Below, in pieces: positions 1 to 63,587 of a stretch of DNA of 64,000 nucleotides. The stretch lies in NCBI GenBank assembly GCA_000004985.1, contig GG738866.1. One strand, 5' to 3'. The notes under the pieces were generated by a model that saw nothing but the letters and a program-made list of their open reading frames with translations, had not been told where the DNA came from and ran no database searches. Position 1 is the first letter of the stretch. Each line of letters opens with the position of its first letter. The stretch is from Naegleria gruberi. Its lineage: Eukaryota. The translations under genes were made by a program, and so were the position numbers.

Positions 1-56
1 CTTATAAACTAATGGATTCATAAATTTTAGAAATTTGTGTGAAATAGTTCACTTAC

Positions 57-992
57 CATTGGAAGCAGCAGCTGGAATGTTAGCAACGAACAAGAGTAAA
101 ATCCACAACCAAGCATTTGGATCATCACCTCCAGCACTATTGGCAAACATTGGGAAAATATCAATAATAATACCAATCATGACAAGCAAAACACCTCCGA
201 TGTGATAAACATTGTAACGGAAATGTAAAAAGAAGAAACTGGCAACCATGTTAATAAAAACGACACTTTGACTCATCAAAACGTTGACAGGTCCACTCAC
301 AAGTGCTGATGGAATTGTAGAAATCAATGTGTTCAAACTGTCCATAATACCCATAACAATAAACTTATAGGATGGGAATGTACGCATTTCCTTGCTGATA
401 GTTCCTCTGTACATTTTGAACCACTAAAGATGTGTTAAATAAACACAATCATCATTTGTTACTTCTTCTATTACTATAGGGAGTGAAAAAACTTACAGTC
501 ACTGGCCAAGATACGAAACAAAATCCCAAACTCAGGAAAACATCGGCCAACATGTATCTAATAAAGAATATCAATTCAATTCATCAACATCAACATCATA
601 TTATTCACAAGAGAATTATTTCACGCCAACAAAAAGAATCATTCGATCGGAATACATTATTTTCACAAGTCATCATCATCACTATGGTCATCATCATTAT
701 AAAAACAAAACAACACCTACTCGTAATTTCTCATCTTTTTAGTCATTCTCACATAGAGTACAAAATCGACACTTCTTGCCAAAACCATGACTACAGTCGC
801 AACGTACAACAAAATTGATTCTTTAAACTTTGATTGTTTGCTTTTATCATTGTCATCATGAGTTAACTCGGTCAAATTTGCTTCATCATTTTGAAATTGG
901 GATGGGTCATACGGAGAAGCCTCTGTACTATAGTATGATTGAATGGCGTGATTGTTGCCACCACCACTCGATGTTAATCGTTGTGTACTCAT
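57..992 (-). CDS. CRT-like (chloroquine-resistance-transporter family) membrane protein, 5' part of gene; 3' exons lie beyond the window start
   Basis: Exons resolved by frame and splice logic: 721..992 (ATG at 992, TM1), 497..557 (61-nt micro-exon encoding TM2 'YMLADVFLSLGFCFVSWPVT'), 57..423 (TM3-4). Donors are GTAGGT, GTAAGT and GTAAGT, and acceptors end TTAG. Exon 3 ends at AAT G|GTAAGT at 57, so the gene continues leftwards out of the window. The translated segment 'LHFRYNVYHIGGVLLVMIGIII' and flanks align to the PfCRT region '[23 protein letters not shown]' (from memory). Confidence 0.55.
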
Positions 993-1337
993 TTTTTTTG
1001 TTGTTGTAAAGAGAAAGTTTTTGGCGGAGAGTTGTGGAGTTGAAAACTCCTGGAGAATCTTTGATGGTTGGAATTTTCATGAATTTTTGAATTGTCGTTT
1101 AAGAATTCGATTCATTAAGGAATTTAATGATGGTAAGAGAGAATTTAAACGAGCTAGCAACATTAATTTCAAAGTGAGTTGGTATTTTTAGTCCAAATAT
1201 TCTGTTCACATTCTTCTCTACAAAGTTCACTTGTTTTTATGAGTAGTCCAAAGTGTGAACAGCAGTTCTTCAAACGAAATCTTGACATAATTAGGCCTGT
1301 TTCGGTTATGCATGAAAATTAAAATTTCTTAAAAAAA

Positions 1338-2690
1338 ATGATTGCACTTTCTGTGGTTGGTGATGGTCATGGTTCTTCACCGGGTGGCTTTCATCCAGAT
1401 CATTCCGTATCTTACAGTTTAGATTCACTGGCGAGTAGTTTTATAGGAAACGAAATTAACGAAACGGACGAAAGTAAGAAAATTAACAAATATGAACTCC
1501 CTTCCTATTCATCGAGTATTCATGATAATTCCTTTTCAAAAATTGAATCTTTTACGAATAGAATGAAAAAGAATTTTCACAAGAAGAAGGCAAAAAATCA
1601 AATAGATTTAATCAAGTCAATTGAATCTTACGAAAAAGCTTTGGAATTTTGTTTGAAAACGAATGATAATGCGAGTGCTGCTGGAAAGTTACATGTATAT
1701 ATAGGAAATTTGTATATGAAAAGATATTTAGAAAGGTTTCAGAAGGCATCTCAGAGGAAGTGGAATAATTTGGAAGATTTGGGTTTGAATCGTCCTTTTA
1801 AAAATGAAAGTCCTGAAAAGGAATATTGTGTGGAAGAGATTATTACATTAATTTCGGATAGATCTTTCATTATGAATCAGTTTATTTCATATGAGAAGGA
1901 TTTACTCTTATTTTCAGAGACTCTTTCGAATACGATCACATTAGAAAGAAATGAGCTAGCTTACACAGCACTGCATCACTATTTAAAGGGCCTCTCCAAT
2001 TTTCCTTTGAATATCAATTCATACTTGGGAATGGCTAAATTATTCTCCCTCTATGGAATGTATTTCTATTCGATTCCTCTTTTTAAGAGATGCATTGACA
2101 TGGTGAGAGCTTGTCGAAAGAAGAAAAACCCAAAACTTTTCAAATTCATCACTGAAGAATCATATACCAGTGCAAGTGAGGAGTTAGCTAAATGCTATCT
2201 CAATATTGGAAATTACAAGAACAGTGTCTACCTCTTCAAGAAGGCACTAAGTAAGAAGGAATTCAAAGATAGTTCACTACTTGGTTATCTTGCCATTTCA
2301 CTCTTTGAACTGAATCCAACCAAGAATAGAGCTGAAAGTTTACATTGTCTCAAGTTGGCCATTACCAACAGTCCAGATTTAGGTTTCCCATATGCATGTC
2401 TTGCATTTATTAATTATGAAATTCCTGAGCAACCTAAAGATGATATTCTCGATCTTTTCATTTCTTCCCTCGAAAAATCAACCAATGATCCAATTGTAAA
2501 CCATTACTATTCCAAATACCTGATGAATGAGAAGAGATTTGACAAGGCATTCAATCTATTAAGAGATGCCTATATGAATTCACCTCCAAACATTGAACTT
2601 TACATATCCCTTTCCAAATCTCTTGAGCTGATAGGTCAGTCATCAAGTTTCCTACAGGAAAAAATCAAATCCATCCAAGTGCTCACTTGA
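1338..2690 (+). CDS. TPR-like helical-repeat protein (function unassigned)
   Basis: 450-aa uninterrupted ORF starting at a real ATG at 1338 in an A-rich context. Amphipathic helical repeats with a TPR-like pattern; no specific family recognised. Confidence 0.45.
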   Translation: MIALSVVGDGHGSSPGGFHPDHSVSYSLDSLASSFIGNEINETDESKKINKYELPSYSSSIHDNSFSKIESFTNRMKKNFHKKKAKNQIDLIKSIESYEKALEFCLKTNDNASAAGKLHVYIGNLYMKRYLERFQKASQRKWNNLEDLGLNRPFKNESPEKEYCVEEIITLISDRSFIMNQFISYEKDLLLFSETLSNTITLERNELAYTALHHYLKGLSNFPLNINSYLGMAKLFSLYGMYFYSIPLFKRCIDMVRACRKKKNPKLFKFITEESYTSASEELAKCYLNIGNYKNSVYLFKKALSKKEFKDSSLLGYLAISLFELNPTKNRAESLHCLKLAITNSPDLGFPYACLAFINYEIPEQPKDDILDLFISSLEKSTNDPIVNHYYSKYLMNEKRFDKAFNLLRDAYMNSPPNIELYISLSKSLELIGQSSSFLQEKIKSIQVLT

Positions 2691-2924
2691 ATTTCTAGTA
2701 ATTTTTCTCATTGTAAAACAAGTTCTTCATTGTTGTAAAATTTTACTGCAATTCCAAAAAAACAACCCAAATTCTAAATTTAAAAAAATACAGCAATTCA
2801 ATCCGTACGGAATTTGTTCTTTTTGAATTTCGGAAGAGACACGTTTGTTTTCCAGTTAGTAAAAATCATCAGCAAGAGGAGCTCATCTAGAAATTTAGTT
2901 TAATAATTTACATATTAAATAAAA

Positions 2925-3932
2925 ATGTCTTCAGGACACAACGATAGTAATAACATCAATTTATTAGATAATAATTTAGAAACAACATTAAATACAGTGG
3001 GATCATCATCAGCGTTTGGAACCAGTATGCAAACTTTACAAGATAGTGACGTCTTTGATGACGAAATGGATGAAATTTTAGCTTCCTATAAACAAGAATT
3101 TGATTTGGAAGCAAGTGCTTTGAAGGAATTGGAAGAAGGATCACCAACATCAGACATTGAAAATGTCAATGGTCCTAACAATTTGGATTATTCATTAGAT
3201 GAAGTACCAGTTGATGATGGTGAGCCAAAGTTTGTTTGCGACACAACAATTCCTGGAGTTGCCAAACATTTGAGAATGCTTGGAATTGACACTCTTCATC
3301 ACGATAACTTTTCCCAAAATTATATTCTCTACTTGGCTAGAACTCAACACAGAACTATTCTAACATTTAGTATGAAATTACAAAAAAATATTGACCAAAT
3401 TTTAAACAATTACAAAAAGAAAAAGGAACGAGTTGAAGAATTGAAAAAGAAATTGAATGAACTACAAGTTGAAGATGAAACAAAGCCACAAATAAGTAAT
3501 AGTTCAGCTACTACTTCTACTCCTTACAATAAGTGGAAAGAAACTAAGGAAAAGATTCAAACAAGAATTGAACAATACGAAATGGACTTGAGTGATCCAA
3601 TTTTGAGCTACCCTTACAAATATTATTTGTTAAAGACCAAAGGAAGATATAATCAAATTAACGAAGTTGTAAATACATTCAAAATCAGATACATCCCAGA
3701 GAAGATGTTTACTAGATGTGCATCTTGCAGTGGAACTTTACGAAAGATTCCAAACAAGGAAGAAGTCAAGCACTTGCTTGAACAAAATACCTACAATGAC
3801 AATGATCATTATTCTATGTGCAATAGATGTAAGCAATTGTTCTGGGGAATTCACATTGAAAATCCAGCCCAAAGAGAAGCTGTCGAAAAAGCCATAGCGT
3901 TCTGTGAAGAATATTCCTACAAGGGTGATTAA
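2925..3932 (+). CDS. Mut7-C / PIN-like nuclease-domain protein with C-terminal Cys4 zinc ribbon
   Basis: 335-aa ORF with a real ATG. 'FVCDTTIPGVAKHLRMLGIDTL' matches the Mut7-C N-terminal consensus (rFlcD..LgkLarwLRllGyDt). The C-terminus carries 'CASCSG...C..CNRC' in zinc-ribbon spacing. Confidence 0.45.
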   Translation: MSSGHNDSNNINLLDNNLETTLNTVGSSSAFGTSMQTLQDSDVFDDEMDEILASYKQEFDLEASALKELEEGSPTSDIENVNGPNNLDYSLDEVPVDDGEPKFVCDTTIPGVAKHLRMLGIDTLHHDNFSQNYILYLARTQHRTILTFSMKLQKNIDQILNNYKKKKERVEELKKKLNELQVEDETKPQISNSSATTSTPYNKWKETKEKIQTRIEQYEMDLSDPILSYPYKYYLLKTKGRYNQINEVVNTFKIRYIPEKMFTRCASCSGTLRKIPNKEEVKHLLEQNTYNDNDHYSMCNRCKQLFWGIHIENPAQREAVEKAIAFCEEYSYKGD

Positions 3933-4024
3933 ATAAATAAGTTAGTGTAGATTTTATATACATCATCTAAAGTTACAAGAATGTCACAGATATTGATCTA
4001 TTTCAAAAATAATTGTTGGTCAAC

Positions 4025-4904
4025 TTAATAGTAACCACCACCATATGGTGGATATCCCATTGGTGGAGGAACACCATAGGCTTGTTGTTGTGGATATCCA
4101 GTAGTATAAGTTGTTGATTGAGTCATCATTGGTTGTTGCATCATTGGTTGCATCATAGGTTGAGTTTGAACCATTGGCATCATTGTTGGATGCATCATTG
4201 GTTGCTGCATCATAGGTTGTTGCATCATTGGTTGTTGCATCATCATTGGCTGTTGCATCATTGGTTGTTGCATCATTGGTTGCATCATCGGCTGTGACAT
4301 CATGGCTTGACCAAAATCAAGAGCATTCAATTCAACCATCAAAACTCCTGATCTAGCTCCCATTAAATTCAATGTCATTCTTTCTGGAACTCCTCTTCTC
4401 AAAGTATTCAATTGAACAACAGCAGATCCCAATGGATCATCATTACTAATTAAATCCTTGTCATATAAATCAAAAGTGACAGATTCTCTCATAGGATCCA
4501 TAACACTGACAGTGAAACTTTCAAACCAGGCAGGATTCAAAGTCATAGGCTTGGTAGAAGTACGATGTTTAGCACGTCCACATTTAATAATACAATATCT
4601 ATTTATCAAATTTCCAATCAAGTCCGAAATATTCATCATTAAAATATTCGAAAATTTTCATGATGATTTTTTTAATATATTGTTATTATTATATAATTAT
4701 TTAAATTAATAAAATTGATGAAAACAATGATAAACATTTTAATAGACAATATAAAACATACGGATCACTAGTACCTGTAATATCTTTTGCGACAAGATTA
4801 TGTGCACTCAAAACGGTAATATTCAAGGTTGGCATTGCGTGAAGATAGATGGCCTTGGTGTGGAGGTAATTTTTTGGTTTTATTTTGTTATTGGGTGACC
4901 ACAT
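4025..4904 (-). CDS. C2-domain protein with C-terminal Met/Gln/Pro-rich repeat and YPxxGY tail
   Basis: Two exons: 4762..4904 (ATG at 4904; an alternative ATG lies at 4835) and 4025..4598. The intron spans 4599..4761, with donor GTATGT immediately after 'GATCC' and acceptor AATAG. The spliced product reads '...DITGTSDPYCIIKCGRAKHRTSTKPMTLNPAWFE', the C2 core (DPYv..k.k....KT..i...lNPvWnE). The tail is (QPMM)n followed by 'GYPPYGGGYY'. Confidence 0.55.
4123..4306 (-). repeat. Coding minisatellite (12-15-nt units, 'catcattggttg ttgcatcattgg...') encoding a (Q-P-M-M)n tract
   Basis: The tandem imperfect units are directly visible. They translate on the minus strand to 'MMQPMMQQPMMQQPMMMQQPMMQQPMM'. 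Confidence 0.6.
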
Positions 4905-5394
4905 CAAATCGATCAAGGCGTCAGAGTTTCGTTTTGTTCCGTTGTCCGATTATTAATAGAATTTAAGTTATTGTGGTGTTGTAAACAAGAAAATATTTTA
5001 ATTGGAAGGGGTGGTTGAAAAGGAAAAGAAGCGACGCTCTTGAATCTTATGGTAATACAGTGAAGTATTAGATTGAACCTTAAAGATCATTATTATTCAA
5101 TTAAAAGTAATGAGAATGGTTTTGCTCACGGTGGTTGTTGGACACATGTCAAAAAGACTTTTTTTGACTAGAAAATATCTTCACAAACCACAACCATGAT
5201 CCTCGAAAATCTACCGAACAGATACAGAATAAGAATTCTGATCAATCTTTCATTTTGTGAGACTCGTTCCTAAACATCACCGTTCAGTTGGGCAGAATTG
5301 GAATAGTATCAAAATTTAAGGTTGTTTGTCTTATTTCTGGACCTTAAAAAACATGAATAAGAAGGAAAATCCATTTTAATTACCAGATTTACTC

Positions 5395-11731: not shown

Positions 11732-12877
11732 TTAGAAACATTTTCTGTGCACAATGCAAGGGCCAGCCTCTTCGTATTCTTCATTCGTTATCCACATATG
11801 TTGAAAGGTTGAAAGACTCGCCAGGATCGAGCCACCAATCCAGTTAGAGTACTTTCTCTCTGGTGGAGCCACAACCTTAATTTTCATGGCTGTTGGGCTG
11901 AGAGCTACCACTTCTTTGGTCAATCTTTCTGCCATTCCTTCTGTTAACGATAAACCACCTCCAATTAATAAATTTCCATATAAATCCTTTCTATTGTCAT
12001 TGTCAGTTGCTGCAATGGAATTAAAAAATATTTCACCAATTCCTGGTATTTCTTTCCCAATTATTGTGGGATTGAATAATATTTCTGGACATGCAAACCG
12101 TTCGTGAGATAGATTCAACACTTGACCATCTGGTAGTTCATATTCCATATCTAATTCACTAGAACATTGAGTTTTTTCATACTCTTTATCATAATCCAAT
12201 GCTATATAACAAACTTTCTTAATCATTTCCTCCACAATTGATCTTTGATTTGTTAAATTCATTCCCTTACTCTCCTTCAACAAATGAATCATATAATCAA
12301 CCATATTTGATCCTCCGAAATTAAATCTTAAAGTTGATTCTGCAAATGTATATCCCTGAAAAACAGGTTGAATTTGAATTACACCATCTCCTAAACACAT
12401 ACTCAATGCTGTTCCTCTCCCAGATGCATAAACAGCAAGAACAGGAGCTGGTGTCTTGTGAACTCCTCTCATTTCAAACTTTTCAAAACAATATTCCACT
12501 AGTTTTTCAGAATTAGAATTTGGATTCATTACTGCATCTGAAAATAAAACATTACTTCCACGAATATGCTCTTGACTTAATTTCAATTCATTAAAAAACG
12601 TAAATTCCAATAATATATCCATCAAATCCCAATTTTTAACAATTCCATTCTGAATAGGATAGTGAAGATTTAATATTCCTCTTCTACTGTGATTCTTTGC
12701 TTCATCACCAATATAGGTTGATCGTTGACTTGGACAGATCATGGCTGGTAAATATTTTGCTGTCCCGATACAAGAAGAAAAGACTGCACGTGGAGCATCA
12801 TCTCCTGCAAAACCTGCTTGAATAGACGAGCTGCCACAATCTAGAACAAGGTTCAGAGGTTCATCTACTACTGACAT
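11732..12877 (-). CDS. Divergent actin / actin-like protein (381 aa)
   Basis: Single ORF with a real ATG at 12877. 'IQAGFAGDDAPRAVF', 'LPDGQV', 'KIKVVAPPERKYSNWIGGSILASLSTFQHMWI' and the exact actin C-terminus 'IVHRKCF' are present. Overall it is clearly diverged from conventional actin (roughly 45% identity, by eye). Confidence 0.7.
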   Translation of the reverse strand: MSVVDEPLNLVLDCGSSSIQAGFAGDDAPRAVFSSCIGTAKYLPAMICPSQRSTYIGDEAKNHSRRGILNLHYPIQNGIVKNWDLMDILLEFTFFNELKLSQEHIRGSNVLFSDAVMNPNSNSEKLVEYCFEKFEMRGVHKTPAPVLAVYASGRGTALSMCLGDGVIQIQPVFQGYTFAESTLRFNFGGSNMVDYMIHLLKESKGMNLTNQRSIVEEMIKKVCYIALDYDKEYEKTQCSSELDMEYELPDGQVLNLSHERFACPEILFNPTIIGKEIPGIGEIFFNSIAATDNDNRKDLYGNLLIGGGLSLTEGMAERLTKEVVALSPTAMKIKVVAPPERKYSNWIGGSILASLSTFQHMWITNEEYEEAGPCIVHRKCF

Positions 12878-12944
12878 TTTTTTAAGTTCACTTGTCTTGG
12901 TGTTTGGTTACTGCAAGACAGTTTTCTTTTAAAAATAAAATTAT

Positions 12945-13016
12945 CCTCCCATGCCGGGAATTGAACCCGGACCTCCTGGGTGAAAGCCAGGTATCCTAGC
13001 CATTGGACTACACGGG
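12945..13016 (-). tRNA. tRNA-Glu (anticodon UUC), 72 nt, no intron, CCA not encoded
   Basis: Minus-strand sequence TCCCGTGTAGTCCAATGGCTAGGATACCTGGCTTTCACCCAGGAGGTCCGGGTTCAATTCCCGGCATGGGAG. It folds as a cloverleaf with a 7-bp acceptor stem (one G-U), anticodon loop CTTTCAC and a T-arm GGTTCAATTCC. A T-run follows on the minus strand (TTTATTTTT). Confidence 0.9.
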
Positions 13017-13027
13017 AATACATTCAA

Positions 13028-13038
13028 ATTGAAAATAT
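13028..13038 (-). promoter_or_regulatory. Conserved tRNA 5'-flank element AATATTTTCAA at -12..-22, shared with the second tRNA-Glu copy
   Basis: Plus-strand 'TTGAAAATATT' sits 12 nt from the tRNA 5' end at both copies (13028 and 63588). The wider 17-nt match is TTCAWATTGAAAATATT. Confidence 0.4.
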
Positions 13039-13143
13039 TACCCTCATCAAAATTATTTTTAATTTACATTGTGAATTGATTAGTTATTTTTTGATGGTTA
13101 TTATTGGTGGATACTTCTTTAATCACACAAAATCTTAATTTTA

Positions 13144-16100
13144 TTAAGCATAATAGGAAGGAGAGCTGGTTTGGAATAGGTCATGAAGAGTTCTTAATTG
13201 ATCCTCAGTGAATTTCATTTCATGAATTTGCCACATATCTGAATGGCATTTGATAAATTCTTGGAATGTCTTTTTAACAGTTTCTCTAATAGATTGAACA
13301 CTATCATTGGAGAACTTGGCCAAAAAGACGAGCATTTCTGGCATAAAATCAGGAATGGAATATGGGAATGCCAAAGCAACAGCGCTCAACCCAAGGATAC
13401 CACTGTGACGATCAATACTTTCCTTTGGGAGTTTGTCATTGGTTGTCTTCTTTGGTTTGGTTGCCTTTTCTTGGAATTCAGGAATCAACTTTTTCGAATA
13501 GTCAGTGCTGCTGATCTTTAAGAAACCTGAGAGCGTAATAGAGGCCATTTGTCTAACTTCTGGCTGAGAGTCTCTGAGCATTGCTGTAATAATTTCAAAT
13601 AATTTTGGAAGCTTTTCTTGCAAGAAGAATTGTTGTCTATAAGCAAATATTTGTAAACATTCCAAAAGTGCGCTTCTAATAGACCAATTAGCAAAGTTGG
13701 AACATTCCTTGGTTACAATTTCATCATACAAAAAGTCAATCAATTCATTGGCCAAACGAGAAGTGAATGCATATCCAGAAAGGATAATGATATCATTTTG
13801 GCAAATAACTTGTAAATCCTCATCATGAGAAGTTGTATGTTCATAAATCTTGGATACCAATTTGATATGATTCATTATTTCTCCAGATCCACAGTGAGGA
13901 GAACTTGAGTTGAACAAACTAGCAACAAAGCACAAGACAGTCTTGCTGAGATTCTTAAAGTCAGAGTATTGACGTTCGAATTGTGGGCTCTCTGAAGGAA
14001 GTGATCTTAAAGACTTTTCCATTGATTCAAGTGATCCATAAACCTTGAGGTTGAATTTCCTGAGGAATTCATGTTGTGATTCGTCAGTGGAAGCATTCAC
14101 CAAACCAAATGTTGGAAGATTGTTATGTTCCAATCTTCTTGGATGCCATAAGGATTTAAAGATAAAGGAAATAAACAGTCCTACGTATTCTCTAACTTGT
14201 TCAGAGTGATGAGAAAGAGAAATTGAAAATATATCTTCCAACAATTGTTTCATAATGGTTGGACTTCTCCAACTGATTTCACCAACAATACCATACAAAT
14301 ATTTCAAATATCTAACTTGAGCGTTGCTGTCAGCTTCATTATCCTTCTTTTCGAGGGCAGCTCTGGTCTTCTTAGCAATAAAATCTACAATCCATCCAAT
14401 ACGTCTGATATCTTTATCACAGACAGCAAACTCAAATCCTTCACACAATTCAGAAATACAACTCATAGAACAATTTTCCAAGACTTTTTCAAATATTTCT
14501 GGAATGATGAATTCGTGGATGGCTTTAACCTGTTGATCATAATCCCAGTGTTTCATACCTCTGATTAATCCTCCCATAATTTCAGAAATTAAAGCCACAT
14601 GGTGAGTTTCTTCAGTTTTACCTGTTCCAATAGTTGGCATTAAAAGTGATTGAATGTAAGGTTTACACATATCAAGAATACCAACACTACCAGCTTCACA
14701 TGGGAAAACCTGGAACAAACCCTTAAATAATTGAGCATTAGATTCATTGAAACCATCATCTCTAATACTCAATAACTCAATAAAGTTTTGTACGAAATCC
14801 TCTTCTATTACTGTTGAATAAATTTCCTTTTTGAAAATATTATGTTGCGTGGTATCTTTTGGAGCAGAATAGTCATAAACTTCGACTTTAGAAGGTAAAT
14901 TAAACCATCCAAAGTAGTTCTTCTCATAAAACTTGGCATTCTTGAACTCTTCAGCAGAATTTAAATTGGTACCCAATGCAACCCAATCAAGAGTATTGTG
15001 TTTGGTCTTTGGTTCAGGTTCAACCATTTTCGTTGGTTGTCTTGGCTTGTATTGGCTCAAAATTAAATTGACTGCTTCGTACGAAATTATTCTAGTCTTT
15101 TCTAAATCACTAATCATTTGTCTAATTGTAAATTTAGCAGCTTCAATAGGGAATACTTGATCTGGTCTAATCATTAACATTAAGAAACTGCTGACAAGAG
15201 TTTGGTATTTCCAATGCCATCCTCCATTCATTTTGGCAAGATCTGAAACATTAATGATTAAACTTCTATATTTTTCTCTATCTTGATCAGTTGCAATTTG
15301 AATATGATAGAATGCATTGAAATAGGTTTCATAGAGTTGTGCCAAACGTTGTTGGATACTTTGCTTTTCAATATGGCTGGTTTGACAAAGAATCATAATA
15401 AGTTTAGAACACAAATCCCAATCTCTGATAACACATGAAACTGCAAATGGTTTTTCCAAAATGAAAATAGCACCTGTTCTTTGTTCATCAGTTGAATTCT
15501 TGTCTGCAAGAACATCAATGAGCAGTGGTAAGAAACTCTTAATTACTTTGTCAGAAAACTTATTAATACATGACATTAATACAGATTGAGCACGTTTTCT
15601 AACTTCAGAGTAAGAGTGGAGTGAGAGACGGAACAAATCATCGAGTAATCTTTGATGAGATTTGGTGTAAGGAATAGACTCATTATGTATAACACATCTG
15701 ACTTTGTATTCCAATAGGGCTTGGATTAAAAGTAAATATCTTGGATACTTGTTTGGAGTCTTTGTAAAAACATCCTTATAACTGTGTTGTTTTACAAAAT
15801 CATGAGAAGATTTCTTCTTCTTGTATCTGTATCTAGTGTTACCACCTCTCATAGCTATCATTGGGAAGAATACTTTACAAACCTTTCCAATAAGATTTGG
15901 ATCCTTATCAGATCTATGTTCGAGAATAATAGTAGTAAGTTCATGAAGAGTATCACAAACTTGTTCATATCCCACAGTCAGAGGTACATCAGGACAACGT
16001 TTAGCAACACACAACCCAGCTTCAATCAGTCTAGAGTTTGGATATTGATTCATATCCTCTAGAATATCCTTATCAAATTCTGGGAATAAAGTATTACCAC

Positions 16101-18732
16101 CTCTCATCACATATCTGATAAATATTAAACTATTTTTCAGTTTTTGAATATCAGGAATGTTACCTTCCTTCTCTTTCATAACTTTTACACATGTTTTTAC
16201 ACAATCCAGAGATAAATTGAGATAAGTATTGCAAAGTTCATTAGCAAACCTCAACTCTTCTTGAGATGGAATATGCCAATTAATTTCAAAATCATCCAGT
16301 GAAATAAATTCTCCCCATGAGCTCCAATGAGAATGTTTTTTAAATTCTTCAGTATTCCATTGGCTAGCATTCACAGACTTGAGTTCCATCAAGTAATATT
16401 TTGTAAGAGAACGAAGAATATTTCTGAATAATTTTCCACTTGTCTTGACAACCTTTCTCTTGTCGCTTACATAGCATAAAGATATAATTGTTTCAAGTTG
16501 AGATCTGTACTTTAAGAGGTGATGGCCTGTTCTGTAACAAACCTGTCCTAGGATTTGTAAATAATATTGTGTTTCCATCTCGGTTAAATTCTTAAGCGAT
16601 TTTCCATCTCTATTTACAAGTTTATGATAGAGCATTGGAATAAACATTGCCAATGTCTGTTCAGGATATGCATAACTTAGTGAGGAGCACATGTGTGCAA
16701 TATTCTTTCTTGCATTAATTAAAAAGTTGGTTTCTACAAATTTGTAAATTCTCTTCAAGCAAATATCCAACAAGTCAGTAGACATTTGATTAAACAGTAA
16801 ATCACAAAGACCCCAGAACATACTAGGAGATATTATATCTGAATCACCTTGGTTTGCCTTTGGATCTTGTTGATGAGATAAGACATTGAAGATTCTTTCT
16901 AAAAGTTCAATACTCCACTCTTCGAAAATTCTAATAACCTCAGGAGGTGTTCTATCTCCAATTGAGGAACCTGTTGTACATAATGGAACACAAACCAAGA
17001 GGGAAGTATAGAATTTGAAAGTGGAGAAGGTTTTTGTTGGATCATTTACATCAATGCCAGGCAGTGTTAATTGGAGTAAATTTGAAAGATAATTTGCACC
17101 TTCAGGATAAATAGAATACTTAAGGAGAGGGAAAACAACCAAAGAAAGGGTTTCTAAAGCAGAAATAGTTTGATGAGTACTCGTTAAAGTTTCTAATGCA
17201 TAAAAACTTCTTTCCATTAATGAAGGAAAGACTTCTTCAGGAGAAATGTAAGCCAAATGCTTGAGTGAGTGATTGGCACATGTGGTCATTTGACTACTCT
17301 TTGAGAATAATGATGTCATAGCTAAAGGTTGAACTATTTGAACAAATGCTTTACAGTCATCACTGCTTAATCTATATTCCTCTGGAATCCAAGAATATCC
17401 TCCATTCTTTGAAGGAATATAATTATTCTCAGAGAATTGATTCATACCTCTTTCAATATCCAATCTCTTACCAAATTTTGTACATAAAATGAGAAGGAAA
17501 TCGGCACATTTTGTTGTCCATTGTCCTTCGTTTGAAGGCTGATAAAAGTTGGAGATGGATTTGATTAATTGTTTCAAATATTTAAGGGTATTTGAATTTT
17601 TAGAAATCATCCAAACAATTAATTTAGCTGAATTTGCTAAAAGTAAATTTTTAGCAATATCAAATGGTGTAATTAAATTAAGTTCATCTGATGGATATTC
17701 ATCATAATTCGATGGTAATGGAGTGTTACCAATAGGTAAATCAAAGCATTTCATGACTTTAGTGAAAATATATTCCAAATATGGATCCCAGTTAATATAA
17801 CCAGATTGATCTTGTGACAAATTAGCAAACAGTAAAAAGAAGCTCAAGTCCCAAGTTGGATAAACACCAATCCAATCCCAGATACCCAAAAATTCATCCA
17901 TCCATTTTCCATAGTGATTATTTTTGAATACCTCCTGACTTTTGTTGTCATTTCCTTCCAATCTTGTTGGTAAAAATATACTTAAGAAGGATTGGGCTTT
18001 GAATATTTTGTGATCATTAATACATAACATTGGTCTGAAAAATTCTAGCATTTCTTCAGTAGAATTAGTGGAGAAATACCTCTTGATTTTTCTAACCAAG
18101 TCAATTAGAGCAGCACCATGTTCTCTTGGACTATAGGTAGAAATACGAAATTTCTTGAAATATGTTTGGTCAAGAATATCATAAACTACTCTCCAATCAA
18201 AAGTAATATCGAGTACTTCTCCTTTTTTAATGAGAGAAGACAATCCATAACAACATTTTGCTTGAGTTGAAAAATCAACACTATAGATATTCTTACTAGC
18301 AATCTTTAGGATGTTGTATAATATTAAACACAATTCCTCCTTTTCCTTGATTAGTAGAGGATATTTAATCTCGGTATATCTTTTTAATAAAAGAAGAGAA
18401 TAATCTAAATGTTCCCAGTTAATATTTTCTACACAAAGATCATTTGGAGTATACATTCTAAAATGTTGAAACAATTCCTTCCTCCATTCATCACTTTCCT
18501 CTGGAATTACTTTACTAATCTCAGGTGGAAGGAATTTATGATATTTATACAACATTCTTTCTGTCTTTACTTTTTTGTTTTTGTTTTCTTCATTGTTTGG
18601 TAATTCTGCAATTATGGAACCTGAATCGGATGACAGTGTTGATGATGGTACAATCTCTTTATGAGTGGCATCGTCTTCCTCGTAGGTACGCTTCATTTTT
18701 TTATAGTCTGCTTTTGAATGGAAATTATGCAT
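13144..18732 (-). CDS. PSME4: Proteasome activator Blm10/PA200 (PSME4) homolog, 1862 aa
   Basis: Single 5.6-kb ORF with a real ATG at 18732. Size and all-helical HEAT-like repeat composition fit PA200. The C-terminus ends '...SSPSYYA', the conserved Blm10/PA200 HbYX ('YYA') proteasome-docking tail. Confidence 0.6.
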   Translation of the reverse strand: MHNFHSKADYKKMKRTYEEDDATHKEIVPSSTLSSDSGSIIAELPNNEENKNKKVKTERMLYKYHKFLPPEISKVIPEESDEWRKELFQHFRMYTPNDLCVENINWEHLDYSLLLLKRYTEIKYPLLIKEKEELCLILYNILKIASKNIYSVDFSTQAKCCYGLSSLIKKGEVLDITFDWRVVYDILDQTYFKKFRISTYSPREHGAALIDLVRKIKRYFSTNSTEEMLEFFRPMLCINDHKIFKAQSFLSIFLPTRLEGNDNKSQEVFKNNHYGKWMDEFLGIWDWIGVYPTWDLSFFLLFANLSQDQSGYINWDPYLEYIFTKVMKCFDLPIGNTPLPSNYDEYPSDELNLITPFDIAKNLLLANSAKLIVWMISKNSNTLKYLKQLIKSISNFYQPSNEGQWTTKCADFLLILCTKFGKRLDIERGMNQFSENNYIPSKNGGYSWIPEEYRLSSDDCKAFVQIVQPLAMTSLFSKSSQMTTCANHSLKHLAYISPEEVFPSLMERSFYALETLTSTHQTISALETLSLVVFPLLKYSIYPEGANYLSNLLQLTLPGIDVNDPTKTFSTFKFYTSLLVCVPLCTTGSSIGDRTPPEVIRIFEEWSIELLERIFNVLSHQQDPKANQGDSDIISPSMFWGLCDLLFNQMSTDLLDICLKRIYKFVETNFLINARKNIAHMCSSLSYAYPEQTLAMFIPMLYHKLVNRDGKSLKNLTEMETQYYLQILGQVCYRTGHHLLKYRSQLETIISLCYVSDKRKVVKTSGKLFRNILRSLTKYYLMELKSVNASQWNTEEFKKHSHWSSWGEFISLDDFEINWHIPSQEELRFANELCNTYLNLSLDCVKTCVKVMKEKEGNIPDIQKLKNSLIFIRYVMRGGNTLFPEFDKDILEDMNQYPNSRLIEAGLCVAKRCPDVPLTVGYEQVCDTLHELTTIILEHRSDKDPNLIGKVCKVFFPMIAMRGGNTRYRYKKKKSSHDFVKQHSYKDVFTKTPNKYPRYLLLIQALLEYKVRCVIHNESIPYTKSHQRLLDDLFRLSLHSYSEVRKRAQSVLMSCINKFSDKVIKSFLPLLIDVLADKNSTDEQRTGAIFILEKPFAVSCVIRDWDLCSKLIMILCQTSHIEKQSIQQRLAQLYETYFNAFYHIQIATDQDREKYRSLIINVSDLAKMNGGWHWKYQTLVSSFLMLMIRPDQVFPIEAAKFTIRQMISDLEKTRIISYEAVNLILSQYKPRQPTKMVEPEPKTKHNTLDWVALGTNLNSAEEFKNAKFYEKNYFGWFNLPSKVEVYDYSAPKDTTQHNIFKKEIYSTVIEEDFVQNFIELLSIRDDGFNESNAQLFKGLFQVFPCEAGSVGILDMCKPYIQSLLMPTIGTGKTEETHHVALISEIMGGLIRGMKHWDYDQQVKAIHEFIIPEIFEKVLENCSMSCISELCEGFEFAVCDKDIRRIGWIVDFIAKKTRAALEKKDNEADSNAQVRYLKYLYGIVGEISWRSPTIMKQLLEDIFSISLSHHSEQVREYVGLFISFIFKSLWHPRRLEHNNLPTFGLVNASTDESQHEFLRKFNLKVYGSLESMEKSLRSLPSESPQFERQYSDFKNLSKTVLCFVASLFNSSSPHCGSGEIMNHIKLVSKIYEHTTSHDEDLQVICQNDIIILSGYAFTSRLANELIDFLYDEIVTKECSNFANWSIRSALLECLQIFAYRQQFFLQEKLPKLFEIITAMLRDSQPEVRQMASITLSGFLKISSTDYSKKLIPEFQEKATKPKKTTNDKLPKESIDRHSGILGLSAVALAFPYSIPDFMPEMLVFLAKFSNDSVQSIRETVKKTFQEFIKCHSDMWQIHEMKFTEDQLRTLHDLFQTSSPSYYA

Positions 18733-33616: not shown

Positions 33617-36600
33617 ATGCTCACAAGCCCTAGAGAAGAATTTGCAGACTCGGGTGATGAAGATGATAAGGACGTTATCGATCAATTTAAAAAGCTGATA
33701 CGGCTTTCTAGGAATTCAAAACAAAATCATAGGAATTTTGCAAAAACTGAAATATCAAACAATATGAATTTTGGAAAGAATAACACTACAAGTGAAAAGG
33801 AAGAAAAAGTCAGTGGTATAGCTAATATGGTGATGAAACGGTTAATGATGGGAAAGTTTGTTACACAAGTCAGGCCTCATTTTCTCTCTGCTGTTCTATA
33901 TTCCGATGAGAGTAGAGAGGACGATTGTTCATCAGTAGCCAATGTATTGTACTCTCGACTCGTTGATTCAATTTCAAAAACTTCTAGGTCGCAAACCATT
34001 GTTCTTAATGGAAAAACAACAAGAAAGAGAGTGAAAACAACATTAACCTTGTTGAACCTTTTATTAGGAGCAAAAGGTAGTGCATCTATTGCTTCCGAAC
34101 AGCTTTCGTTATTTTACAGATTTGGTTCAACTAGTTTGGAACATGGAGAGTACTTGAAACCACTCTTTGCTTTCAATATTGGAATTACATTCAAAACTGA
34201 AAAGGGTTCGTCACAACTATCAGCTCTCGATTTTGATGTGGCTGCTTCTCTTTTCAATAGGTTTGAGATTGAATATTTACTTGAGAAGAAGAGTCCTTAC
34301 CAAACAGCTGTTCAATGTATTGTAGAAAGAATTGAAATATTCAAAGACTTGTTGTGTGCACCTTCAAAAATGTTAGAACCTCTGCTGGGCCAAACTTTTG
34401 TTGAATTGAAATATTTCGCTTTCATTAATAACTTGAAAAAGGAGGTACCAATGTCAGAGTCTAGGTTTTATGATTTTCTCAAGAATATTAAGAGGGCTCT
34501 TTTGTGTTCAACAAGAGAGATTAATACTCTTCTAAGAACGTTATCCATCATACTGCTATTATTGGATTTGGAAGATAACACATCATCTGATGCTTTCAAT
34601 GAGGCTATAAAGTCTGAAATAGAAAGCCATTTGGAAACATTTGACTCTGAGTTACTGGGTCAAATATGTGAAATATTACACATGGAACAATTTGAAGTAT
34701 TGAAAAGTGTTGGAATGATGATAGACAATAAGAGAGAAGAGCTAGGATTTGCGTTTACCAAGTGCACTAGTTTTGTTTGTATTTTGGTTGAATCACTATT
34801 CAGATGGATAGGACAAAAATGTAAAAAAGCATCAAAAGATTTTGTAAATAGTATTGAAATTGATGAGAATCTTGAATGCGAAAATATAGCAGCAGTTCAC
34901 ATTATAAGTTTCCCAGAATTGTCAGCAGAAAAGAACATCATTTATTCCTTTGGAGATTTATGGTGTAATGCCAGTTCTGAGCACGCCTACTCTTGGGCTT
35001 TACAATTTTTGGTAGAGGATATTTCAACAACCCATACAAAGGAAGGATTTGTGACTGATCCTCTTATTGATATTTTAGAAGGTTCTTCAAGCAGAGAAAT
35101 TATTGACTTTTTGTTTGGGAATACTGGTTTATTGTGTTCCTATCCTTCTCTTTCAGATACATCAACTTACCACGACAGAAAGGATGCTATAGATAAGGTT
35201 ATTTTCTTCTTCCGTAATAATTCATATTATGGACTAAGCAGTGTAAATATGGATCAAAATGATGGAAATCACTACATGATTAACCATTCATTTGGAAAAT
35301 TCAAATATGAAGTTGGTTCATTCTTTCCAAAATATATCAATGAAGATGTCCAGCACCAAATATTGAAGGCTGGAATACCAAGTGTTGAAATATCTGATCT
35401 ACACAAGGATTTCCTTCATTCAATGAAGAGTTTATTCTCACCGACTGCCTTGAACTCGGATCCGACTTTTGTAACCTTTTTCCATTTGAAAACCAATACA
35501 TCAACTAATGATTTAATGCAACAAATGATTAATAGCCAAGTTATGACAGTCTCTGATGTATGTGAAAAGTCCTTTGATGTTACTCTTTCGAAGAAATCAT
35601 TCTGGAAAGTTTTTCATCCACTTTCATACAAAAAGTTTTCAAAAGATACCGCTCTTGACCTGGCAGTTTCAAAGATACTTCTCCACTCTATTGGATTTCA
35701 AAAGAGTGGTCAAACACAATTTTATTTTATTGGCAAATCCTCAGTTATGCTTAAAAGAGATACTTACGAAACATTGAGAGCGCACGTTTTTGATGTTATG
35801 AATGAAGCTGCAACAGTTATTCAAAAGTTGTGGAGGCGCTATAAGTTGAAAAAGAAATTGAGGGAATCTATTAAGGAGGCTATTGAAAACAACAGGAAAG
35901 AAATTAAAAAGAAGCCCTCTCCTCAAAAAATTGAAATACCAAATGAAGAAGTGCTGTTTTCAAAGCCAAAGATGGCTGTCAGCACCACTCCTCTAAGCGA
36001 AAAGAAGAAGAAACTTCAAAAGTCATATGCTTATGGATTAGTAAAAAGAAAAGAGGCAATTAAAAAGAGAGCCGCTTCTCCAATGAAGAAACCAAAGCCA
36101 CAAAAGGTAGAAAAGGTGGATATCGACACTCAGGTATCTGTAATTCAAGCATTAATTCGTGGTAAATTGGCAACCAGACATATGTCTAAAAAAGTTGACC
36201 TTAGTTTAAAGATCCAAAGATTGTACAGAGAAAAGAAGAGGAATGATATTGAAAGAGAAATAAGAAAAAGAAAGATTAATGTGATAAAAAAGAGAAACGA
36301 GCAAAAGAAACATGAGATTGAAAAATTGAATGTTGCCGCTAGGAAGATTCAACAAGCATGGGTCAACTATAAGGAAAATTATTTTCAAAAACAACTAATT
36401 GAGGCAGTGATCATAATTCAAAGGGCTTGGAGAGCTTACAAGTTGAAAAGGTCATTGAAAATTCTTCTAAAGATAAGACGAGATGGAGAGAGAAGGAAGA
36501 AAGAATATGAAGAAAGGGAAAGAAGACTGAAAGATAAAGAGATGCAAGTTGTAAGAGAAACCAAAGAATTGGAATATCAAAAACATATACTTGAAGAAAA

Positions 36601-37303
36601 GGAGAAGCTTTTTGTGAAACAGCACATTGTAGATAAAAAGCTGAAGGAAAAGGAAGAGCAGGTATGGAATTCATTACAAGAAATCAGCAATAGTCTGATT
36701 CATTCAAATAGAACTCAACTACCATTAAGCAGCCCTCCTCAACCACCTTCGAAAATTAGCAATCTTCCACTGCTACCTTCAAGTCAGCCAAAAAGACAGT
36801 TGGATGATTCATCAAAAGTTGCAACTAAAATGAGAGAATCATCAGTGAGAACAAAAACCAATATCACAAACGTGTCTAATAACTCAGAAGATAACTCGAG
36901 TTCTAACAAGAAAATTTCATATGCAGACCTGCTAAAAGAAGCCTATGGATCAGCATTCGAATCGAAAATTAAACCAAAACCTCCTTCTCTGAAAAAGGTC
37001 AACAAGACAGAATCAGAAATTGACAAATCAAAGATTGCATCTCCAAGAAAAGTCACTACCAATTCCCAAAACAAGAGTACCATTATTACAAATATTCCAA
37101 CAAGCAGAGTAGTTCCAAAACAACCAATACTTGAGCGTCAAACCCTTAATACTTCAAAATATCACCCTAGTACCATAATAGTTCCAGAAAAAGCAATGAA
37201 ACAGATGATTGAACGTAATGAAAAGAAGTCCAAGAAACCTAATGAAACGTGGAATCAATGGAATTTGCTTGTTCAGGAATTATCTAACGAATTTAATCCC
37301 TAA
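33617..37303 (+). CDS. IQ-motif (calmodulin-binding) protein, 1228 aa, with Lys/Glu-rich coiled-coil tail
   Basis: Single ORF with a real ATG. There are at least three IQ motifs ('AATVIQKLWRRYKLKK', 'VIQALIRGKLATRHMSKK', 'AARKIQQAWVNY...AVIIIQRAWRAYKLKR'). The N-terminal ~650 aa is not assigned to a family. Confidence 0.5.
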   Translation: MLTSPREEFADSGDEDDKDVIDQFKKLIRLSRNSKQNHRNFAKTEISNNMNFGKNNTTSEKEEKVSGIANMVMKRLMMGKFVTQVRPHFLSAVLYSDESREDDCSSVANVLYSRLVDSISKTSRSQTIVLNGKTTRKRVKTTLTLLNLLLGAKGSASIASEQLSLFYRFGSTSLEHGEYLKPLFAFNIGITFKTEKGSSQLSALDFDVAASLFNRFEIEYLLEKKSPYQTAVQCIVERIEIFKDLLCAPSKMLEPLLGQTFVELKYFAFINNLKKEVPMSESRFYDFLKNIKRALLCSTREINTLLRTLSIILLLLDLEDNTSSDAFNEAIKSEIESHLETFDSELLGQICEILHMEQFEVLKSVGMMIDNKREELGFAFTKCTSFVCILVESLFRWIGQKCKKASKDFVNSIEIDENLECENIAAVHIISFPELSAEKNIIYSFGDLWCNASSEHAYSWALQFLVEDISTTHTKEGFVTDPLIDILEGSSSREIIDFLFGNTGLLCSYPSLSDTSTYHDRKDAIDKVIFFFRNNSYYGLSSVNMDQNDGNHYMINHSFGKFKYEVGSFFPKYINEDVQHQILKAGIPSVEISDLHKDFLHSMKSLFSPTALNSDPTFVTFFHLKTNTSTNDLMQQMINSQVMTVSDVCEKSFDVTLSKKSFWKVFHPLSYKKFSKDTALDLAVSKILLHSIGFQKSGQTQFYFIGKSSVMLKRDTYETLRAHVFDVMNEAATVIQKLWRRYKLKKKLRESIKEAIENNRKEIKKKPSPQKIEIPNEEVLFSKPKMAVSTTPLSEKKKKLQKSYAYGLVKRKEAIKKRAASPMKKPKPQKVEKVDIDTQVSVIQALIRGKLATRHMSKKVDLSLKIQRLYREKKRNDIEREIRKRKINVIKKRNEQKKHEIEKLNVAARKIQQAWVNYKENYFQKQLIEAVIIIQRAWRAYKLKRSLKILLKIRRDGERRKKEYEERERRLKDKEMQVVRETKELEYQKHILEEKEKLFVKQHIVDKKLKEKEEQVWNSLQEISNSLIHSNRTQLPLSSPPQPPSKISNLPLLPSSQPKRQLDDSSKVATKMRESSVRTKTNITNVSNNSEDNSSSNKKISYADLLKEAYGSAFESKIKPKPPSLKKVNKTESEIDKSKIASPRKVTTNSQNKSTIITNIPTSRVVPKQPILERQTLNTSKYHPSTIIVPEKAMKQMIERNEKKSKKPNETWNQWNLLVQELSNEFNP

Positions 37304-37371: not shown

Positions 37372-40300
37372 ATGTCGGAGGAAACACCTGTGGAACAACA
37401 AATATCCTCCAATATTGATGATGATCATCATCAGGTGGAAAATACTACCACTAGCATCACTGAGGATACCAACAATGATACATCGACTGTTAATGAACAA
37501 ACAGAAGATGAAACAACAAATATTGTCGAACAAACCTCCGAAGAATCAAAGCAGGAAGAAACAACAATTGAAGAAAATACATCAATAGAAGAAAAACAAT
37601 CTGTTGAATGTAATAACAATGACGATACTATTATTCAACCAACAACAGAAGAATCTACAAAGGTAGAAGAACAAGTAACTTCTCCAACGAGTGAGACCAA
37701 TTTTGATAATGGTGATTGGTTGGATGGTGATTCTTTTGCCACAACCGATGATCATCAACAAGAAACATTGTATAATAACGATCAATCTTCTACTGAAAAT
37801 AGCACACTGCCCGAACAAACAAATCTAGTGAGTGATAGTGTTATTTCTGCTCAATCAACAGATGAACAACAAGAAGCAACAACAACAAACACTGAGGAAC
37901 CAATAGTTGAAGAACAATCATCCGAAAAAGTAATTCCTAATACTTCATCACAGGAAGATTTTGGAGATTATTCAGAGGATGCTTCAGAAGCAATAGTTAT
38001 TGGAGAGACAATGCACGAACACAATTCATCCCAAGATGTAAATAATCAAGTGGAAATACCTTTGGAAGAATCTGTACAAACCAATGAGTCCAACACCTTG
38101 GAAAGTACAAACAAAGTAGAACATTCCGATAGTGTTGTTGAAGAGACTAATAACGAAAATTCAGATGAGGGATTTGCAAATAATGATGATTTTGGTGATT
38201 TCCCAAGCACAGCAACAGCAACCATGGAAACACCAACTATTGAGGAGCCATCAACAATAGTGGAATCTACATCTCAAGAGGGTAGCAACCAAACTTCTAC
38301 TGAGGATAATCTTAATTCGTCTGAACAACCTGCCGAAGATCAACTTGAGGAATCAACCAATCCATCAGAAGAAGGTAATAAGCCAGAAACAACTGTAGAA
38401 ACTGAATTCTCCTCCGTCCAAGAGGAGATGAAGTTTGCAAATGATGAAGATTTTGGAGATTTCCCAACATCGACCGAGGTGGAAACATCCCAACCTGCAC
38501 ATATTAATGAAACAACTGAACCAGTCAGAGAATTTGCAGAAGATGAAGATTTTGGAGATGTTCCAGTATCTACTGTGGTGGAAACATCCCAATCTACACT
38601 CGTAAAGGAAACAATCTCTGAACCTGTACCGGTTCAAGAATTAGCCAAGGATGAAGATTTCCCAACATCTACAGAGGAAACAGCCCAAAAAGAAGAGCAT
38701 GTTAATGACACGAATGAAAAAATAGAATCTGTTGATTCAACAGGCCAAGAAATTGAAATTGTTCAACCAACCACACAAGTTACTGGGTTTGACGATAATG
38801 ATAATTTTGGTGAATTCCCAGAGGTTGCTGAAAATACTCATAAGGTAAAAGGGTTTGGTGATGACGATGATTTTGGCGAATTCCCAACAGAACAACCAAG
38901 TGCACACACTGAAACTGTTATACAGCCAGCAACACAAGAGGAGAAGTTTGTAAATGATGAAGATTTTGGAGATTTCCCTCAACCTACACTCACAAATGAA
39001 ACAATTTCTGAACTAGAATTTGCCAAGGATGAAGATTTTGGAGATTTCCCAACATCAACTGAGGAAACAACCCACGTAAATGAAACAAGTTCTGAACCAG
39101 TTCAAGAATTTGCTCAAGGTGAGGATTTCGGAGATTTCCCAACATCTACTGAGGAAACATCCCACGTAAATGAATCTACTAACCCACCAACAGATGAAAC
39201 AAATGGTGGATTTGCAGAGGATGATGATTTTGGTGATTTTGCTCCAGCAGTTGAATCGACTGAGGCTAATGCAGAGGATGATTTTGGTGATTTTGCTGAA
39301 CCTACAACAGATTCTACTACAGAACAACCAACAACTACAGCAGATCATAATGAAGAAGACTTTGGAGATTTCAATGAGCCTACCCAAGAATCTACTAAGG
39401 AAGATGAAGACGATTTCGGTGGATTTGGGGAAGCAAAGGAGGAGGAAGAAGAACCTGTTGCTAAACCAGTTGAGATCAATTATGCAGATCTTCTTAAGGA
39501 TCAAAAACATGTTATTGATTCTATTCTTTCAATTGACCAGATCAAAAACGAGGACGAATTTTCCAAAGTTAAACAATCTGTTCACAATTTAGTTAGTATG
39601 CTTATACCAACTGAACTTGCAGGAAATCCAGAGAGAACTGACATTACTGGAGAATCTGGAAATACTCTAGAAAAACTATTCAATATGAATTCCAATCACA
39701 ATGCAGATATTTTAAGCAAAATGTCTGTTTGGCAAAATAGTTGTGTGGAAAAACACTTTTTACTCTCACTAGGAATGGAAAAAAAGAAGAATAAGAAGCT
39801 TAACAAACCACTCAGAAAAGCACTTCACAGAAGAACAGCTTCCACAACCTACTCGACACCAATTTCTGGAGATACCCCTCAAAAACCAAAGATTGATACT
39901 CCAAATGTAGATCAAAGAATGAAGATTGATGAAATTGGTAACATTTCTCAAAGAATGCTAGGAGCAAGACATAGAAGAGTTGGTTCCACTGTGACTGACC
40001 TTCATCTTTCTCCAAGAACTGTTCCATTAGGTGTAAACACAATGGAACAGGCTGTTTCACCAACCGCTACAAGTCCACTCCCAACTACTCCTGTATCTAC
40101 CAATAAGTTTACTGGAAACGTTCCATCACCAAGTTTATCGGCTCAACACACTGATGATCTCATCAATTCTTACACTCCATCTATCAATACGCCTTCCTCA
40201 AGTAAGCCAAAGAATGCTGAATTGGATGATATTGCAGCTTTAGTATTTGGTTCTGGATTTGCCTCTCCAACAAAGGAGATACCAAAGACAGAAGTCAAGG

Positions 40301-60800: not shown

Positions 60801-62133
60801 TGGTGGTGGCTTTTTTGGAATGAAAACCAAACTTCCAAAATTACCAGAGCTTAAAGCCACCAAAGACACTAAAAAGATTCACATAGCAGGCGACAAGATC
60901 AATAACAAGGACATTGAAGGAACTGGTTGGATGAGTATTTTAGAAGAAAATGCTGAAAAAATGAGCAAGATATTCGACAAGAATCTATTCGAAAATAACT
61001 TCCAAAAGAAGGAAACAAGAGATGCTCCATCGCAAGAAAAGGAGAATGTTCCTACTCTTGTTTCATTCCTTGACTCGAAGACTTCATACCAACTTGCATT
61101 GTTATTGGGCTTTTTGAAGAAGAATGAAAGAGAAATTAGAAAACATGTAATTGATTTGAATGAAAAGGAACTTCAAAAGCAAACTATTCACAGTTTGAAA
61201 GACTTGTGTCCTGAAGAAGACAAATTCAAGGAAATTGAAAGTTTCGTACAGAAAGGAGATGGTTATTTGGAACAGCTGGAACCTGGTGACAAACTCTTCT
61301 ATGCCATGAAAGACATTCCAAGACTTAAACAAAGATTCACTGCATGGTCAAGCCAAATTTACTTTGAAGGATCTGTTATTAGTGTAGAACCAGATATTGA
61401 ATCCTTGAATAGAGCATGCAAGAATATTGTGCAATGCAAGAGTTTACAAAGATTGATGACATTAATAGTATTGCTTGTCAACTTTTTGAATAAGGCCAAG
61501 ACTGACAAGGACAGAGTTTATGGTTTCAAGCTTAACTTTTTGACAAAACTTGGTGATATCAAATCTTCTAGCGATCCAAATCGTTCAATGATGAATTATC
61601 TTTGCGAATTCTTGTTGGCCAAGGATGACAAGTTAATTCCAGAACTTCTCAAGGAATTGAAAGACTATGCTGAAGTCGGATCTAGAATTGAGCTTCCAGA
61701 ATTGAAGAAAGAAATTGGCAAACTTAACGAGTCCTTAAAAGTCATTCAAACTGAACTCGAATTCTACAAGAAGGAGCAAAAGTTTATCAATGACAAATTC
61801 CCAAAGCAATTGGATGAATTCTATCAATATGCCAAATCTGAAATGCAAAAAATTAACAAGGCCCAAGAAAAATTGGAAAAGATTTTGAAAGAGGTTGCCA
61901 AATTCTTTGGCGAAAAGGAGAAGGATGTCTGCGATACTCCTCACTTATTCTTCACTGCTGTTTCAAACTTCTTGAAACAACTCGACGCTACTTTTACCAA
62001 GCTCAAGGAAGAAAAGGAAAAGAACAAGGATGACCAATTAAGAAAAGAATTGAAGAACTTTTTGCAGAATAGAAGACCAGAAGGAAACATGACCATTCTC
62101 TCAGCAGTAGCTAACGGTGATATTAAACAATAA
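57884..62133 (+). CDS. Formin (GBD/FH3 - FH1 - FH2)
   Basis: Exon 1 is 57884..58802 (Ser/Asn-rich N-terminus). The intron spans 58803..58852 (GTATGT...TATTAG, phase 1). Exon 2 is 58853..62133. The FH1 region is 'PPPPGMGGIPPPPGSGIPPPPGMGIPPPPG...'. The FH2 region includes 'GDKLFYAMKDIPRLKQRFTAWSSQIYFEGSV...LQRLMTLIVLLVNFLN...GFKLNFLTKLGDIKS'. Upstream is an armadillo-like GBD/FH3 region. Confidence 0.8.
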
Positions 62134-63576: not shown

Positions 63577-63587
63577 TCTTGTTCATA

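Follow-up and report, generated by a model that had tools for sequence, protein, structure and literature searches.

Our analysis indicates that two tRNA-Glu(UUC) genes of Naegleria gruberi, found in the 64 kb stretch of DNA that we analysed (the window), share short flanking blocks on both sides, and that these blocks give way abruptly to surroundings that match at background level. We read the shared flanks as what the RNA polymerase III (Pol III) transcription unit comprises beyond the mature tRNA, that is, as start and stop signals, and the pair itself as dispersed, intact nuclear gene copies, ordinary genes of the type 2 Pol III class; taken jointly, we regard this reading as about evenly poised between right and wrong. 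The pair, two members of a large tRNA family in a compact genome with short shared flanks that are probably functional, is a real but ordinary feature.

The gene pair and its shared flanks

The window contains exactly two tRNA genes according to ARAGORN and Rfam RF00005, both tRNA-Glu(UUC) and both on the minus strand, at 12946-13017 (copy 1) and 63505-63576 (copy 2), with an offset of 50,559 nt. Each is 72 nt long, is called by ARAGORN as Glu with anticodon TTC, and scores 67 bits against the RF00005 covariance model, compared with a gathering score of 29, which identifies both as cloverleaf tRNAs. The genes are intron-free, do not encode CCA, and are identical at 72 of 72 positions, as the sequence-only reading had claimed; that reading also placed copy 2 correctly, set copy 1 one base off (at 12945-13016), and omitted the strand. 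A permissive Rfam scan (E <= 0.1) returned no further RNA families in the window. The internal promoter elements, read from the sequence, are an A box, TAGTCCAATGG, at positions 8-18 (2 mismatches to TRGCNNAGTGG) and a B box, GGTTCAATTCC, in the T arm (1 mismatch to GGTTCGANTCC). Both are close to these textbook consensus forms.

We compared the flanks of the two copies in register and in RNA sense, a comparison that covers one isoacceptor with n = 2. Upstream, a shared block of the form AATATTTTCAAT[T/A]TGAA, at -22..-6 from the mature 5' end, is identical at 16 of its 17 positions. Exact pattern matching and the in-register comparison place it at 13023-13039 (minus strand) in copy 1, where it reads AATATTTTCAATTTGAA, and at 63582-63598 (minus strand) in copy 2, where it reads AATATTTTCAATATGAA. 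Between block and gene lies a 5-nt spacer at -5..-1, TGTAT in copy 1 (13018-13022, minus strand) and CAAGA in copy 2 (63577-63581, minus strand), in which none of the five positions agree. The upstream flank of copy 1 thus runs ...GGGT, AATATTTTCAATTTGAA, TGTAT and then the tRNA, and that of copy 2 runs ...ATGA, AATATTTTCAATATGAA, CAAGA and then the tRNA. Downstream, the trailer GATAATTTTA at +1..+10 is the same in both copies at all ten positions (12936-12945 and 63495-63504, respectively, both minus strand); it is followed by TTTTTAAAAG... in copy 1 and by CTATTTCTTT... in copy 2.

Outside these blocks, the flanks match in register at 25% of 567 positions, which equals background, and the identity falls to this level abruptly at -23 and at +11. 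At the measured background, the probability of at least 16 identities in 17 upstream positions is ~3e-9 and that of 10 in 10 downstream positions is ~1e-6; therefore, the flank match is not due to chance. The 17 nt of conserved 5' flank that had been proposed are borne out by these data, as is the claim that conservation stops beyond the flanks, and of the 11 nt proposed for the 3' flank ten are indeed flank, the eleventh being the discriminator G of the tRNA itself.

The block appears to belong to the tRNA genes. Its pattern has two exact matches in the whole window, both at the tRNA-Glu copies, and since it is absent from the rest of the window and from the ~109 kb of related loci described below, it is linked to tRNA genes and is not a word that recurs in intergenic DNA. 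In addition, the upstream surroundings of the two copies are unrelated: the 3' end of a PA200 gene lies above copy 1, and above copy 2 the last 424 nt of the window have stop codons in all frames, which leaves at least 424 nt free of open reading frames. The block therefore follows the tRNA, not a neighbouring gene.

How the differences are distributed bears on another explanation, which we consider possible though rather doubtful: that a unit of ~104-109 bp, made up of the tRNA together with ~22 nt of its 5' flank and 10 nt of its 3' flank, reached a second site by duplication, or was made uniform by gene conversion, fairly recently in the N. gruberi lineage, so that the flanks are identical without having a function. 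In line with this, a repeat search returned one two-copy family, of 109 nt (12931-13039 and 63490-63598, 93% identity, 50,559 nt apart), and the N. gruberi genome has a reported 924 tRNA genes, an unusually large complement that implies much recent tRNA gene duplication (PMC2888827). However, of the six mismatches in the 32 flank positions, five are consecutive at -5..-1, directly beside 17 positions that agree at 16, and such clustering has p ~8e-4 under uniform decay in simulation. A gene conversion tract is expected to be continuous, yet -5..-1 has diverged; the identity stops abruptly at both ends; and the unit, as read from the sequence, carries no flanking target-site duplication. Segmental duplication would appear as contiguous identity with evenly scattered differences, a pattern that the tRNA-Glu flanks do not display. 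Because five of six mismatches are consecutive, constraint on short flank signals is favoured over plain decay, and the mismatch pattern accordingly seems to favour constraint on two short elements rather than the decay of a recent duplication. A young duplicate with one complex mutation at -5..-1 would nonetheless give the same pattern, and selection is not rigorously separable from shared ancestry in a comparison of two copies of one isoacceptor.

Flank elements and Pol III transcription

When positioned by TFIIIC, TFIIIB and Pol III usually open the DNA and start transcription ~10-13 nt before the mature 5' end. The upstream block, at -22..-6, would cover this zone of opening and initiation. 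Within it, both copies conserve an AT-rich AATATTTT at -22..-15 and the sequence TTTTCAA, the CAA of which stands at -14..-12. In the mechanism that we propose, the T-run plus CAA at -18..-12 would serve as a start-site-proximal (initiator-like) element, and the spacer at -5..-1, together with the sequence outside both blocks, would be free to vary. The element may be peculiar to the tRNA-Glu(UUC) isoacceptor family; the two Glu(UUC) copies that share the motif are the only tRNAs of the window and represent a single isoacceptor. That transcription starts here, that the block acts in the promoter and that selection has kept the flanks alike is what we infer from the letters of the two flanks.

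The sequence-only reading had called the upstream element TATA-like and the downstream one a terminator. The shape of the conserved block and the presence of a run of four T agree with functional elements on both sides, and the TATA assignment fails because the block is too near the gene. TATA-like boxes of tRNA genes have been reported at about -34..-29 relative to the mature 5' end (PMC3082873), and PMC10137851 places the TATA-like box of other type 2 promoters at -31/-24 from the start site; AATATTTT, at -22..-15, is nearer the gene than -34..-29, and we rejected it as a canonical TATA-like box. Since AATATTTT is nearer the gene than the reported TATA elements, the upstream block suits a start-site-proximal element better than a site for TBP. 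Similarly, the CAA start-site motif of plants and yeast is reported at about -7..-3 (PMC3082873), and the CAA of the tRNA-Glu block, at -14..-12, falls outside that published interval and inside the expected Pol III start zone.

Farther upstream lie AT-rich boxes that do not align between the copies, TAAAAATAAT in copy 1 (-44..-35) and GAAATATTTT in copy 2 (-54..-45), and these could be TBP sites. We also observed that GAAATATTTT occurs twice in the flank of copy 2, at -54..-45 and at -24..-15, exactly 30 nt apart (window 63599-63630), and that a similar AAATAATTTTG stands at -41..-31 in the flank of copy 1 (window 13048-13058). The GAAATATTTT pair and AAATAATTTTG are possibly TATA-like boxes and possibly mere AT-rich background.

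The upstream block has a further property, a near-palindrome, which reads TTCAA-T-TTGAA in copy 1; its core, TTCAATTTGAA, is palindromic over 5+5 positions in copy 1 and over 4+4 in copy 2. A heat-shock or STAT-type site was considered and rejected, as the spacing in the block is TTC-N5-GAA and such sites have N2 or N3. Pairing between leader and trailer was also rejected, given that it is not conserved from copy to copy. A bolder proposal, to which we assign a low probability, is that the 17-nt block with TTCAA-N-TTGAA, fixed 5 nt from the gene, might be a so far undescribed control element of many Naegleria tRNA genes. As part of the same unlikely proposal, it could act as a Pol III promoter or initiator, or as a factor-binding site, specific to Heterolobosea, and it might be linked to the expansion of N. 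gruberi to ~924 tRNA genes. Our literature search turned up no study of the flanks of Naegleria tRNA genes or of Pol III promoter elements in Naegleria. If the block were general, it would be the first Pol III promoter element outside the gene to be defined in Heterolobosea, and it would aid the design of Naegleria small-RNA expression cassettes as well as comparisons of Pol III promoter evolution across Discoba.

On the 3' side, the discriminator G is followed in both copies by a 9-nt trailer, GATAATTTT, which ends in the first run of four T, at +6..+9 (12937-12940 in copy 1 and 63496-63499 in copy 2). Copy 1 has a second run, of five T, at 12931-12935. Pol III termination occurs at runs of at least four T. 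The 3' block fits a Pol III terminator, with the T-run itself observed and its role assigned by this rule, and Pol III would stop at the first run of four T, at the end of GATAATTTT. In plants, a role in re-initiation has also been shown for the poly-T motif (Yukawa et al. 2000, cited in PMC3082873). We noted, as a separate matter, that the Pol III T-runs of copy 1, TTTTATTTTTAAAAG, lie 50-60 nt before the ATG of the downstream actin-family gene, where a Pol II TATA-like element could perhaps be expected as well.

The downstream identity ends just past the first T-run, at the expected end of a Pol III transcript, and this would also suit a mobile unit, a SINE-like element of tRNA origin or a retroposed copy of a pre-tRNA, with the block and the T-run as the two ends of the transcript, and the large size of the tRNA gene family (924; PMC2888827) is compatible with this. 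We nevertheless consider it very improbable. The tRNA conforms throughout to the canonical form, it lacks a SINE body or tail, and the similarity stops 10 nt past it; target-site duplications or direct repeats are absent around the unit, and a reverse-transcriptase open reading frame is absent beside either copy, in agreement with the earlier claim that no retroelement lies nearby. Moreover, the diverged positions -5..-1 would fall within the supposed transcript, and transcription with a 22-nt leader would begin 30 bp from the A box, an unusually long distance.

Neighbouring genes and related loci

Both tRNA genes lie close to protein-coding genes. Upstream of copy 1 is the gene for the proteasome activator PA200/PSME4 (13144-18732, minus strand), which has the Pfam PSME4 mid, HEAT and C-terminal domains and is 74% identical to its N. 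lovaniensis orthologue; 126 nt separate its stop codon from the tRNA 5' end. Downstream of copy 1 is the actin-family gene NAEGRDRAFT_48860 (11732-12877, minus strand; Pfam Actin, 2e-99; 100% match to an N. gruberi protein), which encodes a protein ~50% identical to conventional actins and whose ATG (12877) lies 68 nt past the tRNA 3' end. Copy 2 is followed, after 158 nt, by the ATG (63346) of an intron-containing gene in three open reading frame pieces (62158-63346, minus strand), possibly an alpha/beta-hydrolase, for which the sole Pfam match is a weak, sub-threshold one to Hydrolase_4 (E = 0.0036). A formin that is 100% identical to an N. gruberi protein lies at 58864-62133; with the actin-family match, it identifies the DNA as that of N. 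gruberi and not of D. discoideum. Both downstream genes are co-oriented with their tRNA, as had been claimed; of the distances given before, 68 nt is exact, and 159 nt and 128 nt (the latter from the PA200 stop) become 158 and 126 nt on measurement. The A-run AAAAAAATG is present right before the ATG of both downstream genes (in 12878-12945 and 63347-63504).

This proximity had been taken to raise transcriptional interference or insulator function, an idea for which we find no support, as the tight spacing matches the compactness of the window. In this window, which has a GC content of ~34%, spacers of 34-470 nt between large open reading frames are typical, and since such spacers are the rule, the close Pol II and Pol III neighbours are explained by genome compactness. 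Indeed, a compact genome with 924 tRNA genes (PMC2888827) predicts that tRNA genes are squeezed among Pol II genes.

Compactness also bears on the explanation that the block is a site for a sequence-specific factor apart from basal Pol III initiation (for example, a dimeric protein on TTCAA-N-TTGAA) that regulates the Pol II neighbours or forms a boundary or insulator. The palindromic core TTCAATTTGAA speaks for it, as do the co-oriented ATGs 68-158 nt downstream of both tRNAs, and tRNA genes serve as barriers or silencers in yeast. However, the block lies on the side of the tRNA that faces away from the downstream genes and is missing from all other intergenic regions of the window, a 5+5 palindrome is only weakly improbable in AT-rich DNA, and short spacers are normal in the window. 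A dimeric-factor site at TTCAATTTGAA is possible but no more than weakly indicated by this symmetry, and we judge the explanation as a whole to be improbable.

Elsewhere in the window, we observed two sets of protein-coding repeats. An open reading frame of 1618 aa (37372-42228, plus strand), for which the sole Pfam match is a weak one to LAA2, contains a ~42-nt unit, present in at least 15 copies, that encodes (D/E)DFGDFP-like motifs, and these may form an array of adaptor-ear-binding motifs. Two adjacent EGF-repeat open reading frames of 1414 and 2079 aa (42358-52696, plus strand; Pfam EGF_2 and Teneurin EGF) contain 300-nt blocks, at 45220, 46180, 47102 and 48062, that are 86-94% identical, and this similarity points to recent tandem duplication within them.

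To place the pair among relatives, we compared six loci, ~109 kb in all: the PA200 loci of N. lovaniensis, Willaertia magna and a Naegleria-like metagenome contig, and the formin loci of N. lovaniensis, a Logan assembly and another metagenome contig. Across these six loci, we found no tRNA, no match to any Rfam family and no copy of the block motif. PA200 is followed directly by an IQ-motif gene in the N. lovaniensis locus (15578-15706) and in that of the Naegleria-like metagenome contig (5868-5974); in the window, the IQ-motif gene is on the other strand at 33617-37303, 15 kb from PA200. Because these two loci have this gene directly after PA200, a rearrangement breakpoint is placed at the PA200 3' end (window 13018-13146), and copy 1 is, on this comparison of loci, lineage-specific and located at that breakpoint. 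None of the N. lovaniensis, W. magna and Naegleria-like metagenome loci has a tRNA after PA200, a further point in favour of recent copying of the ~104-109 bp unit. For copy 2, synteny with the window stops at the formin stop, so that an empty site is not definable at this locus.

Searches of wider collections gave little that resembles the pair. When metagenomes were scanned with 43 nt of the tRNA sequence, the only contigs returned were two that carry tRNA clusters and are unrelated to the window. A pattern that combined the motif with generic tRNA features matched once in bacterial and archaeal genomes, by chance and with no tRNA at the site, and had no match in viral contigs. The two JGI contigs are dense clusters in their own right, with 8 tRNAs in 2 kb in Ga0213866_10065360 (1-2035) and 19 tRNAs in 5.2 kb in Ga0224499_10002186 (1-5191); in these contigs, the gap from tRNA-Val to tRNA-Glu(UUC) is 6 nt, and the tRNA-Glu shares 43 nt with the Naegleria gene.

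Comparison with known systems

Several known systems resemble the Naegleria pair to different degrees. tRNA-targeting retrotransposons (TRE5, TRE3 and DGLT-A of Dictyostelium and Ty3 of yeast; PMC5006619) share with it only the general theme that tRNA genes are landmarks of compact genomes; they differ in that no element lies beside either Naegleria copy, and Naegleria is unmentioned in PMC5006619. An earlier remark on such elements in D. discoideum is not applicable, the organism being N. gruberi. The tRNA/small-RNA pairs of trypanosomatids likewise consist of Pol III genes and belong to compact Discoba genomes, and sequences ~100 bp upstream of a tRNA matter functionally there. A tRNA/snRNA pair of this type was rejected for our locus: neither copy has a divergent small RNA gene above it, no other Rfam matches occur in the window (E <= 0.1), and the PA200 coding end lies above copy 1.

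The resemblance is greater for plant and yeast tRNA genes (PMC3082873; Yukawa et al. 2000), which likewise have an AT-rich element and a CAA at a fixed, short upstream distance and a poly-T terminator. In these systems, the upstream TATA/CAA and poly-T flanks boost Pol III initiation and re-initiation (PMC3082873; Yukawa et al. 2000). The positions differ, with TATA at about -34..-29 and CAA at -7..-3 in plants and yeast, compared with the AT-rich element at -22..-15 and CAA at -14..-12 in the Naegleria pair. The scope differs as well, since the upstream motifs are general across tRNA genes in plants, whereas one isoacceptor pair was compared in Naegleria. Animal tRNA genes provide a parallel of another kind: gene copies that agree in anticodon have an upstream motif in common, and their flanks are otherwise different (Zhang et al. 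2011, PMC3082873); these isoacceptor motifs were defined from whole genomes with many copies, and ours from two copies in a heterolobosean protist. Altogether, the plant and yeast flanks and the animal isoacceptor motifs are the closest precedents for the Naegleria pair, which would work as they do but differs from them in the positions of its elements and in its lineage.
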